The position numbers and the translations under genes were made by a program. 64,000 bases of DNA from Candidatus Omnitrophota bacterium (GTDB lineage Bacteria; Omnitrophota; Gorgyraeia; 2-02-FULL-51-18): positions 44,558 to 108,557 of the forward strand of contig CAMDWQ010000004.1 of NCBI GenBank assembly GCA_945877765.1. The letters are read 5' to 3'. The notes under the pieces are model-generated. The model was given only the letters and a program-made list of their open reading frames with translations. It was not told where the DNA came from and did not search any database. Positions 845-50,071 of this stretch are shown here, piece after piece (position 1 is the stretch's first letter; each line of letters starts with the position of its first letter).

Positions 845-2302
845 ATGACTTTTCCGATTCTCTCCTCCATTCTTCTGTGTCCGGTGATTGGCCTCATTCT
901 CGTACTCTTTATGCCGCCCAAGCAGGAAAATGCAATTCGTGTGATATCCCTTCTATCGGCTGCCGCAAGTCTTGTGCTTTCGCTGTGGCTGTGCTTTCAT
1001 TTTAATAGCAGTAATCCCGCCTTCCAATTTGTGGAACACGTGGAATGGGTTAAAAGCTACGGCATCAACTACGCCATGGGCGTTGATGGCTTAAATATCT
1101 CGATGATTCTATTGACCGCGATCGTGATCTTTTGCGGTGTCCTGGTTTCGTGGACAGTGACTTACCGCGTCAAAGATTTTTTTGCCAATCTGCTGTTTCT
1201 GGTTGCCGGCGTATTTGGTGTCTTTATGACGACAAATCTTTTCTTTTTCTTTCTTTTTTATGAAATCGCGGTTATCCCCATGTATCTTTTAATTGTTGTC
1301 TGGGGGTCTACAGACAAGGAATATGCCGCCATGAAGCTGACCTTGTACCTACTTTTGGGCAGCGCGTTAATGTTTGCCGGCTTTCTTTATATGTACTCTT
1401 TGCCGGGAGGGCACACGTTTGACCTGGTGGCTCTCAAGCAAAACGTCCTCTTCACACCCGAGCAACAAAACATTCTTTTTCTGGGGCTCTTCCTTGGTTT
1501 TGGCGTCTTAGCCGCCTGTTTTCCGTTCCACGTCTGGTCGCCTGCCGGTCACGTCGCAGCGCCCACAGCGGCAAGCATGCTGCACGCGGGCGTCTTGATG
1601 AAACTAGGGGCTTATGGCATCTTACGCGTGGCGGTATTCTTGCTTCCTGAGGGAGCTCGTCATTGGGCAGATTTGATCGCGGTGCTGGCGCTTTGCAATA
1701 TTGTTTACGGTGCCTTTGTGGCAACCCAGCAAAAAGACTTAAAATATATCATCGGCTATTCCAGTGTCAGCCATATGGGTATCGTGCTGCTAGGGATTGC
1801 CACCATGACGCCCACCGGCTTCAACGGTGCTATCTTTCAGATGTTTTCGCATGGCATCATGACCGCCCTTTTCTTTGCCTGTGTTGGTCCTATCTATGAC
1901 CAATGCCACACGCGCATGCTGGGTGATCTGGGCGGACTAGCGAAGAAAGCACCAATCATCTCTACCTTTTTCATCATCGCCGGTCTGTGCGGCCTTGGAT
2001 TGCCAGGCATGGGAAGTTTTGTTGCCGAACTCTTAGTCACCATCGCCGCCGTTAGCGCCTACCCATTAATCGGTGTTATTTCTATTATTGCGCTTCTAAT
2101 AACGGCTTATTACGTCTTGAGCGCCGTGCAAAAAGTATTTTATGGACCTTTGAGCCCTGCCGGCGAACACCTGCATGATATCGGCGCGTTTCAGTTTGTT
2201 CCTCGCGCTGTCCTGGTAGGCTGCCTGCTATTTTTTGGAATCTTTCCTGGGATTTTCATCGAGTGGATTTCAGTTTACACCAAAACTCTTTTAGGCGGCT
2301 AA
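845..2302 (+). CDS. nuoM: NADH-quinone oxidoreductase subunit M
   Basis: 485 aa polytopic protein of the ND4 family. Start lies 2 nt after the nuoL stop. Conserved GYSSVSHMG-like segment. Confidence 0.9.
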   Translation: MTFPILSSILLCPVIGLILVLFMPPKQENAIRVISLLSAAASLVLSLWLCFHFNSSNPAFQFVEHVEWVKSYGINYAMGVDGLNISMILLTAIVIFCGVLVSWTVTYRVKDFFANLLFLVAGVFGVFMTTNLFFFFLFYEIAVIPMYLLIVVWGSTDKEYAAMKLTLYLLLGSALMFAGFLYMYSLPGGHTFDLVALKQNVLFTPEQQNILFLGLFLGFGVLAACFPFHVWSPAGHVAAPTAASMLHAGVLMKLGAYGILRVAVFLLPEGARHWADLIAVLALCNIVYGAFVATQQKDLKYIIGYSSVSHMGIVLLGIATMTPTGFNGAIFQMFSHGIMTALFFACVGPIYDQCHTRMLGDLGGLAKKAPIISTFFIIAGLCGLGLPGMGSFVAELLVTIAAVSAYPLIGVISIIALLITAYYVLSAVQKVFYGPLSPAGEHLHDIGAFQFVPRAVLVGCLLFFGIFPGIFIEWISVYTKTLLGG

Positions 2303-6359: not shown

Positions 6360-6584
6360 CTATCTCTCTTCCATTTGGCGAACTAAGTACGCGTCAAGAA
6401 GATCCTTCTTAGAGCGCCATCTTCCGCCGATCTTGAAACCTGGCAAGACACCCTTTTTAAGCCAGCGATAGACTGTCATTTCATGGACGCCCAAATACTT
6501 AGCTACTTCCTTGGTCGTCATGATCTGCGTTCTCTCAGGCCTTTTAAATTCCGGCTGCTTTGACTCCGATCCATTCATGTCCAT
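6360..6584 (-). CDS. Small helix-turn-helix DNA-binding protein (excisionase/MerR-like HTH_17 family)
   Basis: 74 aa. Carries TKEVAKYLGVHEMTVYRWLKKGVLPGFKIGGRWR. A close paralog sits at 7230..7445. Confidence 0.6.
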   Translation of the reverse strand: MDMNGSESKQPEFKRPERTQIMTTKEVAKYLGVHEMTVYRWLKKGVLPGFKIGGRWRSKKDLLDAYLVRQMEER

Positions 6585-7229: not shown

Positions 7230-7445
7230 TTACTTCTTTTTCGGCTCTGGGGCTCTATCAATCTCTTTCAGAAGGTAGTTATCCAAAACTTCTTTCTTTG
7301 TGCGCCACTGCCCCCCAACCTTAAAACCAGGAAGCTTCTTTTCCTTAAGCAGGCGATACACCGTCATCGAATGAACACCCAAATACTTTGCCACTTCTTT
7401 CAACGTCATGATCTGCGTCCGCTGCGGTCTCTTTTCTTCGGCCAT
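7230..7445 (-). CDS. Small HTH_17-family DNA-binding protein, paralog of 6360..6584
   Basis: 71 aa. RTQIMTLKEVAKYLGVHSMTVYRLLKEKKLPGFKVGGQWR is roughly 70% identical to the HTH core of the 6360..6584 protein. Confidence 0.6.
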   Translation of the reverse strand: MAEEKRPQRTQIMTLKEVAKYLGVHSMTVYRLLKEKKLPGFKVGGQWRTKKEVLDNYLLKEIDRAPEPKKK

Positions 7446-9625: not shown

Positions 9626-9681
9626 CTCGAACGATCCTCGAACGATCCTCGAACGTGCTCGAATGTCCTCGAATGTCATCT
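9626..9681. repeat. Degenerate tandem repeat, period 10-11 bp, about 5 units (TCGAACGATCC-like)
   Basis: tcgaacgatcc tcgaacgatcc tcgaacgtgc tcgaatgtcc tcgaatgtcatc, read directly from the sequence. Confidence 0.6.
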
Positions 9682-9711: not shown

Positions 9712-9781
9712 GTCATCCCCGAAATTATTTATCGGGGATCATACCTAAGTTTGATTCCCGATAAAAACTTTCGGGAATGAC
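9712..9781 (-). repeat. MITE-like double-hairpin intergenic element, family 1, copy A (reverse orientation)
   Basis: GTCATCCCCGA-N9-TCGGGGAT ... ATTCCCGA-N9-TCGGGAATGAC. Its reverse complement aligns with copies at 18375, 40424 and 22734. Confidence 0.65.
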
Positions 9782-17934: not shown

Positions 17935-17993
17935 ATGAATCCATACTTTAGACCTATCGGGAATGTGGGGTCAATATAAATGATCGGTAGCCC

Positions 17994-18111
17994 AACTCCT
18001 CCTAGCCTCCTCTTTTAAGTAAAGAGGGGGGATCACGTTCATTCCCCCTCTTTATTACTCCGCCGAATGGCGGATCCGCCTCAGGCGGAAAAGAGGGGGC
18101 TAGGGGGCGTT
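17994..18111. repeat. MITE-like element, family 2 (degenerate copy) with AACKCCYCCTARCCYCCTCTT terminal inverted repeats
   Basis: Right TIR AAGAGGGGGCTAGGGGGCGTT matches the 26242..26361 copy perfectly. Left TIR has about 4 mismatches. Internal CCCCCTCTTT/AAAGAGGGGG hairpins. Confidence 0.5.
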
Positions 18112-18112
18112 C

Positions 18113-18358
18113 TTACAAAGTCTTCCCGGATTGATAAAATGCAACGAGATCATCATAGCCACCGATGAGTTTTCCGTCGGCGAAGATTTGGGGGACGGTT
18201 TCACGGCCGCCGGTCATTTGGGTGAGTTTTTTGCGCAGATCGGCGTCGTCGGAGACGTCGATTTCTTGGAAGGTAACTTTTTTAGACTTCAATAAATTTT
18301 TTGCCGCGTGGCAATAGGGGCAATAGGCTGTCGTGTAGACTTCAACTTTTTTGGCCAT
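18113..18358 (-). CDS. Glutaredoxin
   Basis: CPYC active site at the N-terminus. TVPQIF..G..IGG motif. Start trimmed to MAKKVEVY so the CDS does not run into the MITE copy. Confidence 0.8.
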   Translation of the reverse strand: MAKKVEVYTTAYCPYCHAAKNLLKSKKVTFQEIDVSDDADLRKKLTQMTGGRETVPQIFADGKLIGGYDDLVAFYQSGKTL

Positions 18359-18374
18359 GGCACTCAGCTCTCCT

Positions 18375-18444
18375 GTCATTCCCGAAAGTTTTAATCGGGA
18401 ATCAAACCTATACATGATCCCCGATAAAAAATTTCGGGGATGAC
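18375..18444 (+). repeat. MITE-like double-hairpin element, family 1, copy B
   Basis: GTCATTCCCGAAAGTTTTAATCGGGAAT...GATCCCCGATAAAAAATTTCGGGGATGAC. Confidence 0.65.
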
Positions 18445-18459
18445 ATTGGGTTAATGTTC

Positions 18460-19245
18460 TTATTTGTCCTTTAACCCTGCCGCTTCTTTTAACTTCCGAA
18501 CTTCATCGGGCTTGAGTTCTCTTTTTTCTCCGGGCTTCATCGTCCCCAGAGACAGTGTCCCATAATCCGTGCGCTCAAGGTCGATGACGCGGTGGCCGAT
18601 GCTTTCAAAGAGACGGCGGATTTGGCGTTTTTTGCCTTCATGAAGGACGACGCGAAGCCAGGTTTCTTTGGGGCCGATTTTTTCGATGTCGATTTTGCAG
18701 GGAGCGGTCATATCCTCTTGGAGCACGACGCCTTTTTCAAGACGTTTGATGCTTTGTTCGGCGACAACGCCGCGAACCCGAACATGGTATCTTTTTTTGA
18801 CGCCAAATTTGGGATGCGTCAGGCGAAATGACAACTCCCCATCGTTGGTCATGAGAATCAAACCAGTCGTATCGCGGTCCAGGCGGCCTACGGGAAATAA
18901 GCGTTCGGGTACACCCTCAAAAAATTCAGCCACCGTATGCTCGGCGTGCGGATCTTGCATGGTCGTCATCACATTTTTGGGTTTATAAAATACGAAATAT
19001 CTTTTTTGCTGGAAGGCGTCGCGGGTGACTTCCTGCTCACTGACCTTGATTTGATCTTTTTTGGCGTCTACGCGGAAACCTTTTTCGCGCACCACTTCTC
19101 CATTGACGGTGACTTTTCCCTCTTCAATTAGAGACACCACACCGCGGCGGCTGGCAATGCCAAAACGAGCCAACACGACTTGCAGGCGCTCGGTGCCGGG
19201 CTTGGGAGGTTGTTTTTTATACTCTTCTTGATTATTCTCGGGCAT
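18460..19245 (-). CDS. rluB: rRNA pseudouridine synthase, RsuA/RluB family with S4 domain
   Basis: S4 segment LQVVLARFGIASRR. Catalytic RLDRDTTGLILMTNDG. Confidence 0.8.
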   Translation of the reverse strand: MPENNQEEYKKQPPKPGTERLQVVLARFGIASRRGVVSLIEEGKVTVNGEVVREKGFRVDAKKDQIKVSEQEVTRDAFQQKRYFVFYKPKNVMTTMQDPHAEHTVAEFFEGVPERLFPVGRLDRDTTGLILMTNDGELSFRLTHPKFGVKKRYHVRVRGVVAEQSIKRLEKGVVLQEDMTAPCKIDIEKIGPKETWLRVVLHEGKKRQIRRLFESIGHRVIDLERTDYGTLSLGTMKPGEKRELKPDEVRKLKEAAGLKDK

Positions 19246-21080
19246 CAGTCTGCCTGGCGTTTGACGCGCTTTCTTTGATTGGGATCTAAAAGACGTTTGC
19301 GTAGACGAATATTCTTGGGAGTTGCTTCCACCAATTCATCAGGACCGATGTATTCAATCGCCAATTCCAGATTTAATTCACGGGGAGGTGTCAGCACCAA
19401 GGCGTCGTCCGACCCGGAAGAGCGCATGTTGCTTAACTTTTTGGTTTTGCAAGGGCTAATATCCATATCCTCATCACGGGCATTTTCCCCGATAATCATA
19501 CCGACATAGACTTCCACGCCAGCAGGAATGTAGAGGTCTCCCCGCTCCTGGGCATTACAAAGACCATACGCATTGGACTCACCGGCTTCACTGGCAATGA
19601 GAGATCCGTGTGGTAATACGCTAAAACCACCTTCCTGCATTTCGCGATACTCATCAAACACGTGGTGCAAGATAGCGGTGCCGCGAGTTTTGGTCATCAA
19701 AGCACCCTTAAGACCAATGACACCGCGTGTTGAAATTTGATATTCCAAATGCAATTCGCCGGTGGGTGTCTGACTCATATTTTTTAAAACCGCCTTGCGG
19801 CGCCCTACTTCTTCGATGATAGCGCCTTGGTAGCTGACAGGCACATCGATGACTAAAAATTCAAAAGGCTCCTGCTTGACCCCGTCCTTTTCATGCATGA
19901 TCACCTGGGGCTGGGATACCTGAAGCTCAAAACCCTCACGGCGCATCGTTTCAATCAAGATAGCCAAATGAAGCTCTCCTCGTCCCGAAACCAGAAAAGT
20001 GTCAGCCGCCTCCGTCTCAGCCACGCGCAAAGACACGTTGGTTTCCAACTCGCGAAAAAGGCGGTCGCGAATCATTCGAGAGGTCACGTACTTGCCTTCG
20101 CGTCCGGCAAATGGACTGGTATTCACACCAAATGTCATCTGAACCGTCGGCTCATCGATCTGAAGCGGCGGTAATGGGGCTGGATTAATGGGATCGGTGA
20201 TTGTCTCTCCGATGCCGATACGCTCAAAGCCAGCCACCGCCACAATATCTCCCGCTTCGACCCGCTCTACTTCCACGCGGTCCAAACCGGAGTACACCAG
20301 AAGATTGGTCACTTTTGAAACCGTCTGCGTGCCATCACGGCGAACAAGAAGGGCGCTGTCTCCTTTTTGGATGACACCACCGGTAATCTTGCCTATTCCC
20401 ATCTTCCCCTTGTAAGCGTCCTGAAATAGAGCCAACACTAAAAGCTGGAAAGGATCTTCGACCTTGGCTGTCGGCGCCGGCACTTTTTCAATAATAACAT
20501 CCAAAAGCGCGTTAATGTTTTTAGAGGGATTTTTCATATCGGTTGTCGCGGTCCCTTGAAGCGCAGACGCATAGACAATGGGGAAATCTAGCTGTTCGGG
20601 AGTGGCATTTAATTCGCAAAAAAGATCAAATGTGCGATTTTCTACATCCTCAATCTGTGAATCGGGGCGATCCACTTTATTGATGACGACAATGGCGCGA
20701 TGCCCCAACTCTAAAGCTTTTCTCAAAACAAAACGCGTCTGCGGCATGGGCCCATCTTTGGCGTCAATCACCAGAAGCACGCCGTCCACCATGCGCAACG
20801 TGCGTTCAACCTCGCCTCCAAAATCCGCGTGTCCCGGCGTGTCCACAATGTTAATTTTGACATCCTTGTAAATGACGCTGGCATTTTTGGCGCGAATCGT
20901 AATCCCGCGCTCGCGCTCTAAATCCATCGAGTCCATGACGCGCTCGCCCATTTCCTGAATATTGCGATGCACATGCGTCTGGCGCAAAATCGCGTCCACC
21001 AGCGTAGTCTTGCCGTGATCAACGTGAGCGATAATGGCTATATTTCTAAGTTTTTGCTGACCCATAAATGTGGTTTTCAT
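19245..21080 (-). CDS. typA: Translational GTPase TypA/BipA
   Basis: [25 protein letters not shown]-motifs. 611 aa. Overlaps the rluB start by 1 nt. Confidence 0.9.
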
Positions 21081-21236
21081 TTCCCTTTAAGATGATTAAA
21101 AATAAAAAGACCGCGGAGAAGCCCAAATCCGCAGTCTAAAAGTTTACTTCCTAATTGGCAAGCATGAATGACAAGGATTTTCTGCAGTAATCATACCAGA
21201 CGACCTGGTTAAGTCAAGAAAAATTAAGCTCCTTGG

Positions 21237-22235
21237 ATGGGTTTATCTGCTATCATAACCGCGATGCTAAAACTCAAATCTCTCGAACTTAAATCCAATG
21301 TCATCTCATCGCCTATGGCGGCGTGCACCGATTTAGCCTACCGCTTAATTTCCCGTGAGTATGGGCTGGAATTCTGCTTCTTAGAGATGGTAGCCGCCGA
21401 ATCTTTGATTCGCGACAACCGAGCCACCCAAGAACTAATGAAAACGATTCCCCAAGACAAGCCTCTAGGCGCTCAGCTAGTAGGATGCCGCGCCGAGGCC
21501 ATGGGAGAAGCCGCGGGAATCGTCGAAAGCCTTGGTTACGACCTTCTAGATTTGAACCTAGGCTGCCCCGTCCCTAAAGTTGCAGGCAAAGGCGCCGGCT
21601 CCGCTCTCTTGGCCCGCCCCGATGAATGCCGCGCCATCTTTACTGCTGTTACCAAAAATGTTAAAAAAATCCCCGTCACGGTCAAAATGCGTCTAGGTGT
21701 CTCCGATGCCTCCGGAAACGAAGCGGCGCGCGTGGCTAAAATTGCAGAGGAATGCGGGATTACTGCTGTCTCCGTTCACGGCCGCACCCGTGTGCAAGGT
21801 TATTCGGGGAGTGCTGATTACCACGCCATCCGCCGCGTCAAAGAAGCGGTCAATATCCCCGTCATTGGCAATGGAGATGTCCTAAACGGCCACGATGCGC
21901 AAAGAATGCTTGATATCACCGGCTGTGATGGTGTCATGATCGGCCGCGGAGGCCTCGGAAACCCGTGGATATTTAAGAGTGTTGAAAACGTCATCGCCGG
22001 CAAAGGCGCTTTACCGGAGCCTTCCAGCGATGATAAAAAGAAAGCGCTCCTGCGCCATATGGAGCTTGAGCTTCTATACCGGGAAGAACGTACGGTTCTG
22101 GTTTATATGCGGCGTATTGCCGCTTGGTACTTTAAGGGCCTTGCCGGGGCGGTAGAATTTCGAGGGAAGCTCAACGTCACACAGACAATTCCGCAGATAC
22201 GTGAATTGATCCTGAATTTTTCGTCTACCGGCTAA
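21237..22235 (+). CDS. dus: tRNA-dihydrouridine synthase
   Basis: PMAACTDLAYR...DLNLGCP...VKMRLG Dus TIM-barrel motifs. The true start may be the internal Met at 21267. Confidence 0.8.
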   Translation: MGLSAIITAMLKLKSLELKSNVISSPMAACTDLAYRLISREYGLEFCFLEMVAAESLIRDNRATQELMKTIPQDKPLGAQLVGCRAEAMGEAAGIVESLGYDLLDLNLGCPVPKVAGKGAGSALLARPDECRAIFTAVTKNVKKIPVTVKMRLGVSDASGNEAARVAKIAEECGITAVSVHGRTRVQGYSGSADYHAIRRVKEAVNIPVIGNGDVLNGHDAQRMLDITGCDGVMIGRGGLGNPWIFKSVENVIAGKGALPEPSSDDKKKALLRHMELELLYREERTVLVYMRRIAAWYFKGLAGAVEFRGKLNVTQTIPQIRELILNFSSTG

Positions 22236-22698
22236 TTTTTAGGACCTTGTACTTCAGCACTCCGGCAGGAATTTTTATTTCGGTCATATCCCCCACCTTT
22301 AATCCCAAAAGGCCTTTGGCGATCGGCGAGGTCACTGAAATCTTGCCAGAATCAAAATCCGCTTCGTCTTGAGGAACGATGGAATAAGTAAATTCGTCCT
22401 GGTTTTTTAAATCCTTAAGCAGAACCTTGGCCCCAATAAATACCTGATCCTTGGGAATCTTGGATTCATCGATAATCTGTACACGCGCCAGTTTATCGCT
22501 AGTCGTCGCGATACGGCTCTCGTTTAGGGCTTGACTGTTTTTGGCGGCATCATATTCGGCATTTTCCTTCAAGTCGCCAAAAGCACGTGCTTTGGCGATG
22601 TCGTCGGCAATCTCGCGACGCTTCGTCGTCTTTAGATACTCGAGTTCTTTGACTAGCTTGTCAAAACCCTCACGGGACATCGGTACTCTGTCGTCCAT
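22225..22698 (-). CDS. greA: Transcription elongation factor GreA
   Basis: 157 aa. N-terminal coiled-coil region and FKBP-like C-terminal domain. Convergent 11-nt overlap with dus. Confidence 0.85.
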   Translation of the reverse strand: MDDRVPMSREGFDKLVKELEYLKTTKRREIADDIAKARAFGDLKENAEYDAAKNSQALNESRIATTSDKLARVQIIDESKIPKDQVFIGAKVLLKDLKNQDEFTYSIVPQDEADFDSGKISVTSPIAKGLLGLKVGDMTEIKIPAGVLKYKVLKISR

Positions 22699-22733
22699 TA
22701 TTTCTCCTAAGAATTGGTCACTCCGAGCCTATT

Positions 22734-22794
22734 GTCATTCCCGCGAAGGCGGGAATCTGTATTAAACGCAGATCCTCACTTTCGTGAGGATGAC
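22734..22794 (+). repeat. MITE-like double-hairpin element, family 1, divergent copy D with compensatory stem changes
   Basis: GTCATTCCCGCGAAGGCGGGAAT...GATCCTCACTTTCGTGAGGATGAC. Same terminal GTCAT/ATGAC ends and two-hairpin layout. Both stems are re-paired with different bases. Confidence 0.55.
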
Positions 22795-22821
22795 AACTTA
22801 GAACAGAATAAAAGATTTTGA

Positions 22822-23388
22822 CTATTTTATCAACCGATTAATCTTTTTGAGCCTTTCAACAGGCAGACCGACGGCATTGGAAAAAGAACCACTCACTTCT
22901 CGCACAATCCCGCCCTTTTTAACCTGGATCGCATAGGCCCCCGCTTTATCCAGGGGATTTACTTTTTTAAAATAAAGATTAATCTCTTTGCGGCTCATGG
23001 GGAGCAGAAGGACCTTTGTTTTTTCAACCATCACCACACGCCTCTTGATCTTGCCCGCAAGCATCTCCAGCAGAACCATCCCCGTATAAACTTCATGCCA
23101 TTGCCCCTGGAGTGACATAAGGATGTCAAAAGCGTTTTTCATATTCTTGGGTTTACCGATGATCTTTTTCTTAAAATAAACCACAGTGTCAGCGGACAAT
23201 ATCTTTCCATCAGCAATTAAACGGGACGCGGAAAGCGCTTTTCCCAAAGCATGAATCCTCACCAACTTTACTGGGCCTGCACCCGAAATATTTTTTTCAA
23301 CATAGGCCGGTTTTAGAATTTTAAAACACACTCCCAGATCTTTTAAAATTTTCTTTCGCCGTGGCGATGTGGAGGCTAGATAAATCAT
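22822..23388 (-). CDS. maf: Maf-like nucleoside-triphosphate pyrophosphatase
   Basis: N-terminal IYLASTSPRR. 188 aa. Confidence 0.8.
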   Translation of the reverse strand: MIYLASTSPRRKKILKDLGVCFKILKPAYVEKNISGAGPVKLVRIHALGKALSASRLIADGKILSADTVVYFKKKIIGKPKNMKNAFDILMSLQGQWHEVYTGMVLLEMLAGKIKRRVVMVEKTKVLLLPMSRKEINLYFKKVNPLDKAGAYAIQVKKGGIVREVSGSFSNAVGLPVERLKKINRLIK

Positions 23389-24639
23389 TTATGAGAGACT
23401 TCGCACCGCGCTGCGCCCGGCCAGCGTTCCTGAAGACCAAGCCCACTGGAAATTAAACCCCCCGATGCGGCCGTCAACATCCAGAATCTCTCCCGAAAAA
23501 TAAAGCCCCGGCACCAACTTTGACTGCATCGTGGAAAATCGGACCTCTTCCAAACTCACACCGCCGGCAGTCACCTCCGCTTTTTTGTATCCGGTGACCC
23601 CTGTCACATTCAAAGGTGACTCGCGTAAAAGTCGAAGCAACTTTCTTTTATTTACCAATGAAAGTTTTGAAAATGCCGAAAGCTGTCCCAAATTATTTCT
23701 TTGGAGAAACACATCCAAAAAACTATCCGGCAGTAGGAATTCATCGGATAAAAAATGTTTCAAGGATTGTCCTGAGCCGTTTCTAGACAAGATTAAATTT
23801 TGCAAGGACTCCTCGGTGCTACCGGGAATAAAATTGGCAAAAATTTCTGGTTTCTCTTGGGCCGGGCACGCGGCAAAGTGGCGCGAAATATCCAAAGCCG
23901 CCGGGCCACTAAATCCAAAATGAGTAAATAAGAATGAGCCCCGGGCCGAGGCCTGTTTCTTCCCATTTCTAAAAAATGAAAGCTCTGCCTCCAAAGTCAC
24001 CCCCGAAAGAGACTGCCAATCCTTATCTTCTGATAAGAGAGGGGTTAGCGCGGGATAAGTGGGGATAATCGTATGCCCAAAGTGCTCAGCGAATCTAAAG
24101 CCGGCGCCGTCACTCCCTGTCTCGGGAAGAGAAAGGCCTCCCGTCGCCAAGATCACGCGCCGCGCCCAAAGAAGATTTTCGGAATTTTCCTTCAGAGAAA
24201 ACAGAGCATCCTTTTTTCGTACCCCTTCAATCCGGTGGCCCGTTTTTAGGACGACCCCCAGACGATCTGACTCCTTCATTAGCGCTTCTAAAACCGTTTT
24301 ACCGGAGTGTGTCACGGGAAAATATTTCCCGGTAGGCTCAAGAATTAGCTCCACACCAATCTCTCTAAAAAAATTGATCGTTTGCGTGGGGGTAAACGCT
24401 TCTAGGACGTGCTTTACAAAATGGCGCGGTCCCCCTTGATAATCGGAAGGCAGAACACGCTCATTGGTCACATTGCAACGTGTCCCGCCGGAAACTAGGA
24501 TCTTCGCGCCAATCTTCTGGCGTGAATCCAAAAGAAGAATAGTGGCGGAAGGATTGTTTTGTTTGGCTGTGATCGCTGCCAAAAGACCGGCCGCTCCAGC
24601 ACCGACGACAACGACATCGGCTATAGGTCCTGTCTTCAT
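23389..24639 (-). CDS. HI0933/BaiN-family NAD(P)/FAD-dependent flavoprotein
   Basis: VVVGAGAAGLLAA dinucleotide-binding motif. 416 aa. Confidence 0.7.
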   Translation of the reverse strand: MKTGPIADVVVVGAGAAGLLAAITAKQNNPSATILLLDSRQKIGAKILVSGGTRCNVTNERVLPSDYQGGPRHFVKHVLEAFTPTQTINFFREIGVELILEPTGKYFPVTHSGKTVLEALMKESDRLGVVLKTGHRIEGVRKKDALFSLKENSENLLWARRVILATGGLSLPETGSDGAGFRFAEHFGHTIIPTYPALTPLLSEDKDWQSLSGVTLEAELSFFRNGKKQASARGSFLFTHFGFSGPAALDISRHFAACPAQEKPEIFANFIPGSTEESLQNLILSRNGSGQSLKHFLSDEFLLPDSFLDVFLQRNNLGQLSAFSKLSLVNKRKLLRLLRESPLNVTGVTGYKKAEVTAGGVSLEEVRFSTMQSKLVPGLYFSGEILDVDGRIGGFNFQWAWSSGTLAGRSAVRSLS

Positions 24640-26226: not shown

Positions 26227-26241
26227 CCAACTCTTCCAACC

Positions 26242-26361
26242 AACGCCCCCTAACCCCCTCTTTGCAATAAAGAGGGGGGAGCGTGTTCCCTCCTCTTTAA
26301 ATAAAGCGGGGGAAGATAGTGTGTTCCCCCCTCTTTGCTAAAGAGGGGGCTAGGGGGCGTT
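26242..26361. repeat. MITE-like element, family 2, well-preserved copy with perfect 22-bp TIRs and three internal CCCCTCTTT/AAAGAGGGG hairpins
   Basis: Left TIR AACGCCCCCTAACCCCCTCTTT; right TIR AAAGAGGGGGCTAGGGGGCGTT. Read directly from the sequence. Confidence 0.6.
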
Positions 26362-26368
26362 GGGGTTT

Positions 26369-31670: not shown

Positions 31671-31743
31671 GGCCCCATCGTCTAGTGGCCTAGGACACTA
31701 CCCTCTCACGGTAGGGACACGGGTTCGACTCCCGTTGGGGCTA
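31671..31743 (+). tRNA. tRNA-Glu (anticodon CUC)
   Basis: Cloverleaf folded by hand. Acceptor GGCCCCA/TGGGGCT, anticodon loop CUCUCAC, T-arm ACGGG-TTCGACT-CCCGT. Close to the E. coli tRNA-Glu backbone. CCA is not encoded. Confidence 0.85.
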
Positions 31744-49770: not shown

Positions 49771-49817
49771 AAAAAAAGCCGAGCTACCTAATGACTATCT
49801 CTATTAGGTAACTCGGC
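49771..49817 (-). terminator. 15-bp-stem hairpin plus U7 in the leader of the 242-aa gene (terminator/attenuator after the upstream 232-aa gene)
   Basis: The minus-strand RNA stem is fully paired (one G-U). The plus-strand version would contain a C-A mismatch. It is followed by UUUUUUU. Confidence 0.45.
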
Positions 49818-50071
49818 TTTCCGCCAATCAAGCTCGGCGGATCCGTGGCTTTGCGTCCCGCCCTTGCGAGCGGTTTGCGTTTTTCTAAAAAAGTCTAAAA
49901 CAAAGAACAACCATTTATTAACTTTTCCCTTACTCGTGTTACGAGTGTACATCAACTTTATCGAGTTGTCAAGTATATGAGTGATTTAAAATTATATGTA
50001 ACTCTATTAAAATAAATGAGTTACAGATATAAAATTATTTATTTAAAGTAATTAAAAAAGGTGTGATTGAA

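Follow-up and report, generated by a model that had tools for sequence, protein, structure and literature searches.

Inverted pairs of an oriented dRS3/NTS-type DNA hairpin in an Omnitrophota genome: probable recognition sites of the single-domain GIY-YIG nuclease Ssn

A 64,000-nucleotide stretch of the genome of a Candidatus Omnitrophota bacterium (GenBank assembly GCA_945877765.1, contig CAMDWQ010000004.1, positions 44,558 to 108,557; hereafter, the window) contains exactly four inverted doublets of a short hairpin, that is, eight oriented hairpins. We consider it probable (roughly 0.7) that these elements are inverted pairs of the DNA hairpin known from the dRS3, Neisseria Transformation Sequence (NTS) and Ssn-related motif (SRM) family, a recognition site of the nuclease Ssn, and that the doublets are the cargo-less version of a hairpin-ssn-hairpin unit. 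The original prediction, made from the sequence of the window, had described a dispersed family of four double-hairpin elements of about 70 bp, likened to miniature inverted-repeat transposable elements (MITEs) or repetitive extragenic palindromic (REP) sequences; all four copies were recovered where it had placed them, with the stems it had described, and the description of a dispersed REP-like family of two hairpins is supported. The doublets and their hairpins are as follows, with bit scores from the covariance model of the unit described below.

Doublet A, long-loop, 9712..9781: opposite in orientation to B and C; 22 nt past the stop of a pfkB-family kinase gene and 198 nt ahead of the start of ahpC.
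Hairpin A1, 9712..9740 (+): GTC head, stem ATCCCCGA/TCGGGGAT, 9-nt loop, trailing C; 42.4 bits.
Hairpin A2, 9753..9781 (-): stem ATTCCCGA/TCGGGAAT, 9-nt loop; 47.6 bits.
Doublet B, long-loop, 18375..18444: 15 nt past the stop of an RluB-like pseudouridine synthase gene and adjoining the AGGAG ribosome-binding site of the glutaredoxin gene (grx).
Hairpin B1, 18375..18403 (+): stem ATTCCCGA/TCGGGAAT, 9-nt loop; 46.8 bits.
Hairpin B2, 18416..18444 (-): stem ATCCCCGA/TCGGGGAT, 9-nt loop; 46.0 bits.
Doublet D, short-loop and of the canonical NTS type, 22734..22794: between maf (stop 27 nt off) and greA (start 35 nt off).
Hairpin D1, 22734..22757 (+): GTCATTCCCGCGAAGGCGGGAATC, an exact dRS3 and an exact 24-nt NTS core; 28.2 bits, outside the training set.
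Hairpin D2, 22771..22794 (-): GTCATCCTCACGAAAGTGAGGATC, stem ATCCTCAC/GTGAGGAT, 4-nt loop; 20.7 bits, outside the training set.
Doublet C, long-loop, 40424..40494: 6 nt past the stop of a 1118-aa gene without assigned family and adjoining the AAGGAG ribosome-binding site of gltX.
Hairpin C1, 40424..40452 (+): stem ATTCCCGA/TCGGGAAT, 9-nt loop; 45.2 bits.
Hairpin C2, 40466..40494 (-): stem ATCCCCGA/TCGGGGAT, 9-nt loop; 45.4 bits.

Each unit (24 or 29 nt) begins with a GTC head and ends with a trailing C, and between them the two arms of an 8-bp stem enclose a loop of 4 or 9 nt; the general form is Y, GTC head, 8-bp stem of the A-Y-Y-C-C-N-G-N type, loop, complement and C. Each doublet has one unit per strand with the GTC heads facing outward. 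Doublets A to C combine a T-type stem (ATTCCCGA/TCGGGAAT) with a C-type stem (ATCCCCGA/TCGGGGAT) and have 9-nt loops and spacers of 11–13 nt, and doublet D has the stems ATTCCCGC/GCGGGAAT and ATCCTCAC/GTGAGGAT with 4-nt loops; the flanking C residues that the original prediction had counted into the first stem of D are unpaired. A 30-nt pattern of the unit matched the window 12 times (six hairpins, both strands) against 0.13 matches expected from 100 shuffles, none of which reached 12. The covariance model, whose training set did not contain D1 and D2, was run over the whole window with filters off and retrieved the eight hairpins only, the six long-loop ones at 42–48 bits; the next matches scored 12 bits or less and were mostly opposite-strand readings of the same eight hairpins. 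The unit has an orientation: the long-loop hairpins that reach 42–48 bits forward score about 11 bits on the other strand. Folded as single-stranded DNA (ssDNA), the doublets have energies of -18 to -28 kcal/mol (z = -5.4 to -7.1), which none of 200 shuffles matched.

All four doublets are intergenic, falling within the 8% of the window that is free of open reading frames (ORFs; chance about 4e-5), and every one sits between co-directional minus-strand housekeeping genes: A between the pfkB-family kinase gene and ahpC, B between the rluB-like gene and grx, D between maf and greA, and C between the 1118-aa gene and gltX. The Shine-Dalgarno sequence of the downstream gene is touched by doublets B (grx) and C (gltX). 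The mechanically called 100-aa glutaredoxin ORF (18113-18415, minus strand) begins at an ATG within doublet B; the ATG at 18358, which follows AGGAG by 11 nt, is the plausible start.

A scan of viral contigs (32–72% GC) for GTCATTCCCG-N(2-12)-CGGGAATC gave GTCATTCCCGCG[C/A]AGGCGGGAATCCAG as the dominant form among the matches listed, and a full-text search with this form led to two reports on the same Neisseria repeat (PMC11893778; bioRxiv 10.1101/2021.07.10.451892). The first describes the NTS as a 28-nt sequence, CGTCATTCCCGCGMAVGCGGGAATCYRG, which contains dRS3, and generalises it to the degenerate SRM, present in many bacteria (PMC11893778, Nat Commun 2025). SsnA of Neisseria meningitidis is a 94-aa single-domain GIY-YIG protein that binds the hairpin as ssDNA only, and not in its RNA form, and cuts the forward strand alone, a few nucleotides upstream of the hairpin; cleavage needs the three nucleotides 5' of the palindrome, binding needs the C just 3' of it, and the identity of the loop is dispensable for cleavage (PMC11893778). 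The ssn genes, which encode single-domain GIY-YIG proteins of the cd10448 type, are typically flanked by the motif and, in Neisseria, nicking by Ssn lowers the recombination of NTS-bearing incoming DNA (PMC11893778).

Hairpin D1 reproduces all 24 nt of the NTS core, and its only two mismatches to the 28-nt NTS fall at the outermost positions; D1 also agrees exactly with the dRS3 definition ATTCCC-N8-GGGAAT (ATTCCC GCGAAGGC GGGAAT). The search with the NTS 28-mer in PMC11893778 allowed one mismatch, by which D1 fails, and the other seven hairpins have no match to it. The SRM pattern, HGTCWYN(0-2)YYVSBRHN(0-5)WNVSBRGN(0-2)RNCYNB, fits D1 (22733-22760) alone; once loops of up to 9 nt are allowed and the pattern is shortened by its last three positions, three of the six long-loop units fit too. 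The positions critical for SsnA, GTC before the palindrome and C right after it, are kept in all eight hairpins. The original prediction had allowed that the copies might match a family already catalogued, and this is what was found: in kind, the family is the dRS3/NTS/SRM hairpin (PMC11893778), the same 21-mer of which is also read as a Neisseria REPIN, a REP doublet forming a hairpin (bioRxiv 10.1101/2021.07.10.451892).

The units of the window resemble NTS/SRM in the YGTCAT head, the ATTCCCGC-type stem and the trailing C, in being oriented, intergenic and multi-copy, and in that ssn is flanked by inverted hairpins in related loci. They differ in that doublets A to C have a moderately conserved 9-nt loop and ATCA for ATCY, and in that they occur as tight (11–13 nt spacer) heterotypic doublets in an uncultured host lineage, with no ssn in the window. 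Compared with dRS3 and the Neisseria intergenic mosaic elements (NIMEs), D2 resembles the ATTCCCAC...GTGGGAAT variant that partners dRS3 in Neisseria-like contigs; however, the T-type units of A to C have N13 between ATTCCC and GGGAAT, the stems of the C-type units (ATCCCC) and of D2 are different, RS blocks between the units are absent, and the host (GC 47%) is unrelated to Neisseria. To the catalogued family the window adds a host lineage not seen before, a form with long loops that escapes the published pattern, and two regularities, the heterotypy of tight doublets and the conservation of the 9-nt loop.

Conservation of the stem was assessed on partner units of doublets from many genomes, which were picked by position and the terminal RTGAC anchor only, limiting circularity. 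Among 70 candidate partners, 46 had at least seven of eight Watson-Crick pairs in the 9-nt-loop register and about a dozen others were short-loop NTS units. In an alignment of 41 partners (selected for at least six of eight pairs) and the six long-loop window units, together 46 distinct sequences, 98.1% of the 368 cells were paired, and seven of the eight stem pairs showed changes on both sides, in 58 cells; these covariation values were reached by none of 500 shuffles, and slid controls paired in at most 55% of cells. Compensatory change, which the original prediction had drawn from copy D alone, thus extends to seven of eight stem pairs, and on this ground the local hairpin is under selection. 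G-U pairs occupied five cells and mismatches seven, and because G-U is no commoner than mismatches the constraint appears to act on both DNA strands rather than on one RNA. In 47 long-loop doublets the pairing within units averaged 15.8 of 16, and none had identical stems; taking both loop classes together, homotypic doublets numbered 0 of 44 at spacers of up to 40 nt versus 11 of 38 at 41–100 nt. The four window doublets are likewise heterotypic, and the family data show that the local hairpin, not the long fold, is what is kept.

This last point bears on the reading of Bertels and Rainey, who treat the same Neisseria 21-mer, ATTCCCGCGCAGGCGGGAATC, as a REPIN mobilised by a Group 2 REP-associated tyrosine transposase (RAYT; bioRxiv 10.1101/2021.07.10.451892). 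Carried over to the window, that reading would make the doublets REP doublets mobilised in trans by a RAYT of the HUH/Y1 type, which we consider unlikely. The architecture is indeed that of a REPIN, with two inverted REP-like units a few nucleotides apart, and the minimum-energy ssDNA fold of A to C is one long, REPIN-like hairpin of roughly 30 bp (-20 to -28 kcal/mol), whereas D folds as a three-way junction with two local hairpins on a short closing stem; target-site duplications are absent, as with IS200/IS605-type chemistry. Comparable inverted doublets of imperfect palindromes with a short spacer and long-hairpin potential in ssDNA are found in the bacterial interspersed mosaic elements (BIMEs) of E. 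coli, which contain REP sequences of the Y and Z types, and the units of the window doublets are likewise of two types. However, all tight doublets are heterotypic, so that the long REPIN hairpin is never perfect and the local hairpins are. The head is GTCA in all eight units, and not the GTAG-type tetranucleotide that RAYT-linked REPs reportedly carry. Tblastn with an E. coli RayT query found no RAYT-like ORF in the window or in about 2.2 Mb of hairpin loci, a weak negative. Among 28 hairpin-flanked ORFs the Y1_Tnp family is absent and GIY-YIG, the only Pfam family found more than once, is present; the gene linked to the hairpin encodes a GIY-YIG nuclease rather than an HUH/Y1 transposase, and direct biochemistry ties this hairpin to Ssn (PMC11893778).

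The linkage to ssn is evident in about 2 Mb of sequence fetched solely for containing the hairpin, in which five loci had ssn-like genes, one with an internal stop; the four intact genes encode proteins of 88–96 aa assigned by Pfam to GIY-YIG (PF01541). At three loci (L058, L003 and L185) ssn lies between hairpin(+) and hairpin(-), i.e. inside a convergent pair, and at L185, in a metagenome-assembled genome (MAG) of Mariprofundaceae, it has 9-nt-loop hairpins on both sides, several with covarying stems. Homologues of the L185 protein at 63–75% identity are flanked by NTS with 4-nt loops; at L315, for example, hairpins at 955-977(+) and 1298-1320(-) enclose the ssn gene at 1001-1291 in a unit of 366 bp. 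One Ssn clade therefore goes with both loop lengths. Among 32 ssn loci on viral contigs, at least 14 have hairpin(+) upstream and hairpin(-) downstream, and about 22 have a GTCAT hairpin within 200 bp.

Several further observations concern the ssn genes themselves. On eight contigs from several samples (L322-L329), a type I restriction-modification operon has an ssn homologue inserted in its gene order between hsdS and hsdR, and along another contig (L316/L317) ssn genes and doublets recur about once per kilobase. Searches of the Protein Data Bank and NCBIfam with the Ssn-like proteins returned nothing informative. Two Ssn clusters whose source and contig profiles were like those of the window proteins turned out to come from other organisms.

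The long-loop form is widespread. When one genome per species was scanned for GTCATTCCCGA-N9-TCGGGAATC, at least 118 loci were obtained, almost all in MAGs, and those listed belong to Nitrospirota, Elusimicrobiota, Omnitrophota, Ignavibacteria/Bacteroidota, Zetaproteobacteria, Methylococcales, Colwellia, Spirochaetes, Planctomycetia, Thermodesulfobacteriota and others. Among cultured carriers is the Colwellia isolate TT2012, with hairpins at locus L225. In 228 distinct long-loop hairpins, Y precedes GTC in 94% and C follows the palindrome in 98%, and the loop consensus is A-N-G/T-Y-T-T-T-W-A. Mixed doublets of one long-loop and one short-loop unit occur at nine loci and, since both forms also coexist in the window, long-loop and short-loop units belong to one system; the presence of 4-nt and 9-nt loops in one family fits with the dispensability of loop identity for cleavage (PMC11893778). 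A literature search with the long-loop sequences returned unrelated primer matches only. On four IMG/VR contigs (L018, L072, L081 and L099), NTS-type hairpins lie between phage structural genes (capsid, cement, tail tube, Mu Gp37-like), and phage genomes therefore carry the repeat too. A doublet in a Planctomycetia MAG (L213:1080-1152, CAZBIH010000007.1) is 93% identical to copy B over the whole 72 nt, loops and spacer included, in a genome otherwise without nucleotide similarity to the window, and suggests recent horizontal spread or a related source lineage.

Under the proposed explanation, each unit would fold into a local hairpin whenever the DNA is single-stranded, as on the lagging-strand template, during repair, or in imported or phage ssDNA. 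The hairpin with its GTC head and trailing C would then be the recognition site of a small single-domain GIY-YIG endonuclease of the Ssn type which, binding ssDNA alone, is predicted to nick a few nucleotides 5' of the head; an Ssn may act on the copies in this organism, and the long-loop units would be cleavable as well. The 70-bp doublets would be the cargo-less form of the hairpin-ssn-hairpin unit of other genomes and may have spread, as derivatives of that unit, into short intergenic spacers as a selfish or domesticated multi-copy repeat. The likely effect would be to mark the chromosome for site-specific nicking of ssDNA and so modulate ssDNA recombination, as in Neisseria transformation.

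Several results weigh against this explanation. A tblastn search of the window with three Ssn seeds found no ssn homologue (best E = 0.2), and none lies in the 3.5 kb added on one side, the other side reaching the contig end. In the loci surveyed, ssn is directly flanked by 9-nt-loop hairpins at L185 only, and the published SRM pattern misses seven of the eight hairpins of the window. The moderate conservation of the 9-nt loop across phyla is not explained by a loop-independent nuclease, and doublets A to C have A instead of Y after the trailing C, as do 2% of the long-loop family. In a convergent pair each strand would receive one of the two predicted nicks, at the outer edges of the doublet, and simple IS200-like single-strand excision therefore does not follow. 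Finally, Bertels and Rainey credit the same Neisseria repeat to a RAYT transposase (bioRxiv 10.1101/2021.07.10.451892).

An RNA-level role was also weighed, in which the doublets, co-transcribed in operons, would act as FtrB-like small RNAs, mRNA-stabilising hairpins, processing sites or translation modulators of the abutting gene. The location of all four between co-directional genes, the contact of B and C with the grx and gltX Shine-Dalgarno sequences and the strong stability of the stems agree with such a role, and copy D (22709-22819, plus strand) aligns end to end with the Rfam family FtrB (RF02748; 27.3 bits, E about 0.006), a Northern-verified RNA of about 115 nt from Francisella tularensis whose deletion gave no phenotype (PMC3091763). 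The alignment is explained by the FtrB consensus, in which GUCAUUCCCGCGUAGGCGGGAAUC is followed by a spacer and another hairpin, the same doublet core as in copy D; FtrB differs in having additional sequence on its 5' and 3' sides as well as a promoter and a terminator of its own. The published FtrB Northern probe is the hairpin itself, and FtrB may be a transcribed member of this hairpin repeat family. The score falls, however, well short of the gathering score of 66 bits, and no Rfam family reached its threshold, the bacterial families Chlorobi-1 and isrJ scoring only 13–16 bits and none but FtrB exceeding 17; other sub-threshold hits were eukaryotic miRNA precursors, generic long-hairpin matches far below threshold. 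G-U pairs are tolerated no more than mismatches, units lie on both strands, copy A is inverted relative to transcription, and the same hairpins occur in any orientation across many genomes and phages, whilst SsnA does not bind the RNA form (PMC11893778). We therefore regard an RNA-level role as distinctly improbable, and the suggestion in the original prediction of a primarily RNA element was not borne out; a side effect on the operons at the RNA level, compatible with a DNA role, is possible and is not the best explanation.

The original prediction had also offered a cruciform recognised by a transposase or recombinase, or a REP-like site. This comes closest of its options, with the difference that the evidence favours an ssDNA hairpin recognised by a protein. 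In a narrower version, IS110/Piv-type elements or filamentous phages would insert site-specifically at the hairpins, whose main role would be that of attachment or target sites; such use is reported for dRS3 in Neisseria. We consider this reading very unlikely. REP-like palindromes are common targets of the IS110 family. The Ssn report cites dRS3 as a phage recombinase target (PMC11893778). Nevertheless, none of the four copies adjoins an insertion sequence, integrase or prophage end, such a role would leave the tight form of the doublets, their copy number and the ssn linkage unexplained, and recombinase targeting would be a secondary use of an existing repeat. A MITE in the classical sense did not hold up either. 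The elements share with MITEs such as the Correia elements a short, non-coding, multi-copy and intergenic nature and terminal inverted symmetry, but the two hairpins make up the whole element instead of forming terminal inverted repeats around a core, no DDE transposase or other transposase of a terminal-inverted-repeat family is linked to the repeat, and no target-site duplication was found: the 10-nt flanks of the four copies (CACCCCCAGT/GTGGGGTGGA, CAGCTCTCCT/ATTGGGTTAA, TAAGCTCCTT/ATTAAATTAA and CGAGCCTATT/AACTTAGAAC) share no direct repeat.

Other candidates were rejected as well. Integron attC sites have a GTTRRRY core, which by inspection is absent from the elements, and no integrase was seen among ten flanking genes scanned. 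A palindromic operator for a dimeric regulator is contradicted by the compensatory stem changes, no promoter was called inside the elements, and an intrinsic terminator was dismissed since no T-run (U-tract) follows any unit and B and D were not called in a terminator scan of 18000-23500.

The window is about 99% identical to sequence of a MAG lineage (GCA_947444795.1 and ENA ERZ2728xxxx assemblies), and every conspecific contig spanning a site carries the element. Nine of 21 conspecific contigs end inside or beside an element, which is the behaviour of a multi-copy repeat. A fifth element, the short-loop hairpin GTCATCCCCGCGAAAGCGGGGATC (L334:15-37, minus strand), precedes window position 1 by about 3.45 kb and sits upstream of the nuo operon; a 13-kb conspecific contig has its start in this element and its end in doublet A. 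A comparison with empty sites was sought by a metagenome scan with the neighbouring BipA gene (19245-21080), which returned mostly relatives at 45–66% identity, none with conserved synteny; outside the conspecific contigs the best BipA homologues reached at most 66% identity over the full length, and one partial fragment 82%.

The window also contains an unrelated second family of hairpin repeats at 17992-18111 and 26240-26363, with units of the form CCCCCTCTTT-loop-AAAGAGGGGG in arrays framed by CCAACGCCCCCTAA...CTAGGGGGCGTTGG; at 26254-26349 Tandem Repeats Finder reported a period of 38 with 2.7 copies, and one copy of the family is found about 260 bp from doublet B, immediately downstream of grx. 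An 11-nt tandem repeat, CTCGAACGATC, of about 4.5 copies occupies 9626-9677, between doublet A and ahpC; it is bounded by GATGACATT and AATGACATTG, which are like the terminus and flank of doublets B and C (GGATGACATTGGG / GGATGACATTAAA). Further features are a c-di-GMP-I riboswitch at 49804-49889 (minus strand, 62.7 bits) upstream of a minus-strand gene; tRNAs at 31671-31743 (+), 38747-38817 (-) and 38970-39051 (-); and an 89-nt direct repeat of 76% identity (6457-6545 and 7345-7433) in two small paralogous genes of the HTH_17 type that flank a response-regulator gene.

These findings do not overturn current understanding of the family. The hairpins break metagenome assemblies and seed spurious ORFs such as 18113-18415, and their recognition as Ssn-type repeats explains both. 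The published NTS/SRM patterns detect one of the eight units here, although the long-loop form has the same head, stem and terminal C, and Ssn-hairpin systems of uncultured phyla are therefore probably undercounted in surveys. Possible leads are that tight doublets never have identical stems and that the Francisella FtrB is built on such a doublet. More tentatively, and with less probability than not, the long-loop form (loop ANGYTTTWA) may be a separate, unrecognised lineage, and the tight heterotypic doublets non-autonomous copies of the hairpin-ssn-hairpin unit that move via ssDNA with a GIY-YIG nuclease. If so, they would constitute a class of mobile element apart from the DDE, HUH and serine/tyrosine systems, and Ssn-hairpin systems would be far commoner than published motif counts suggest.

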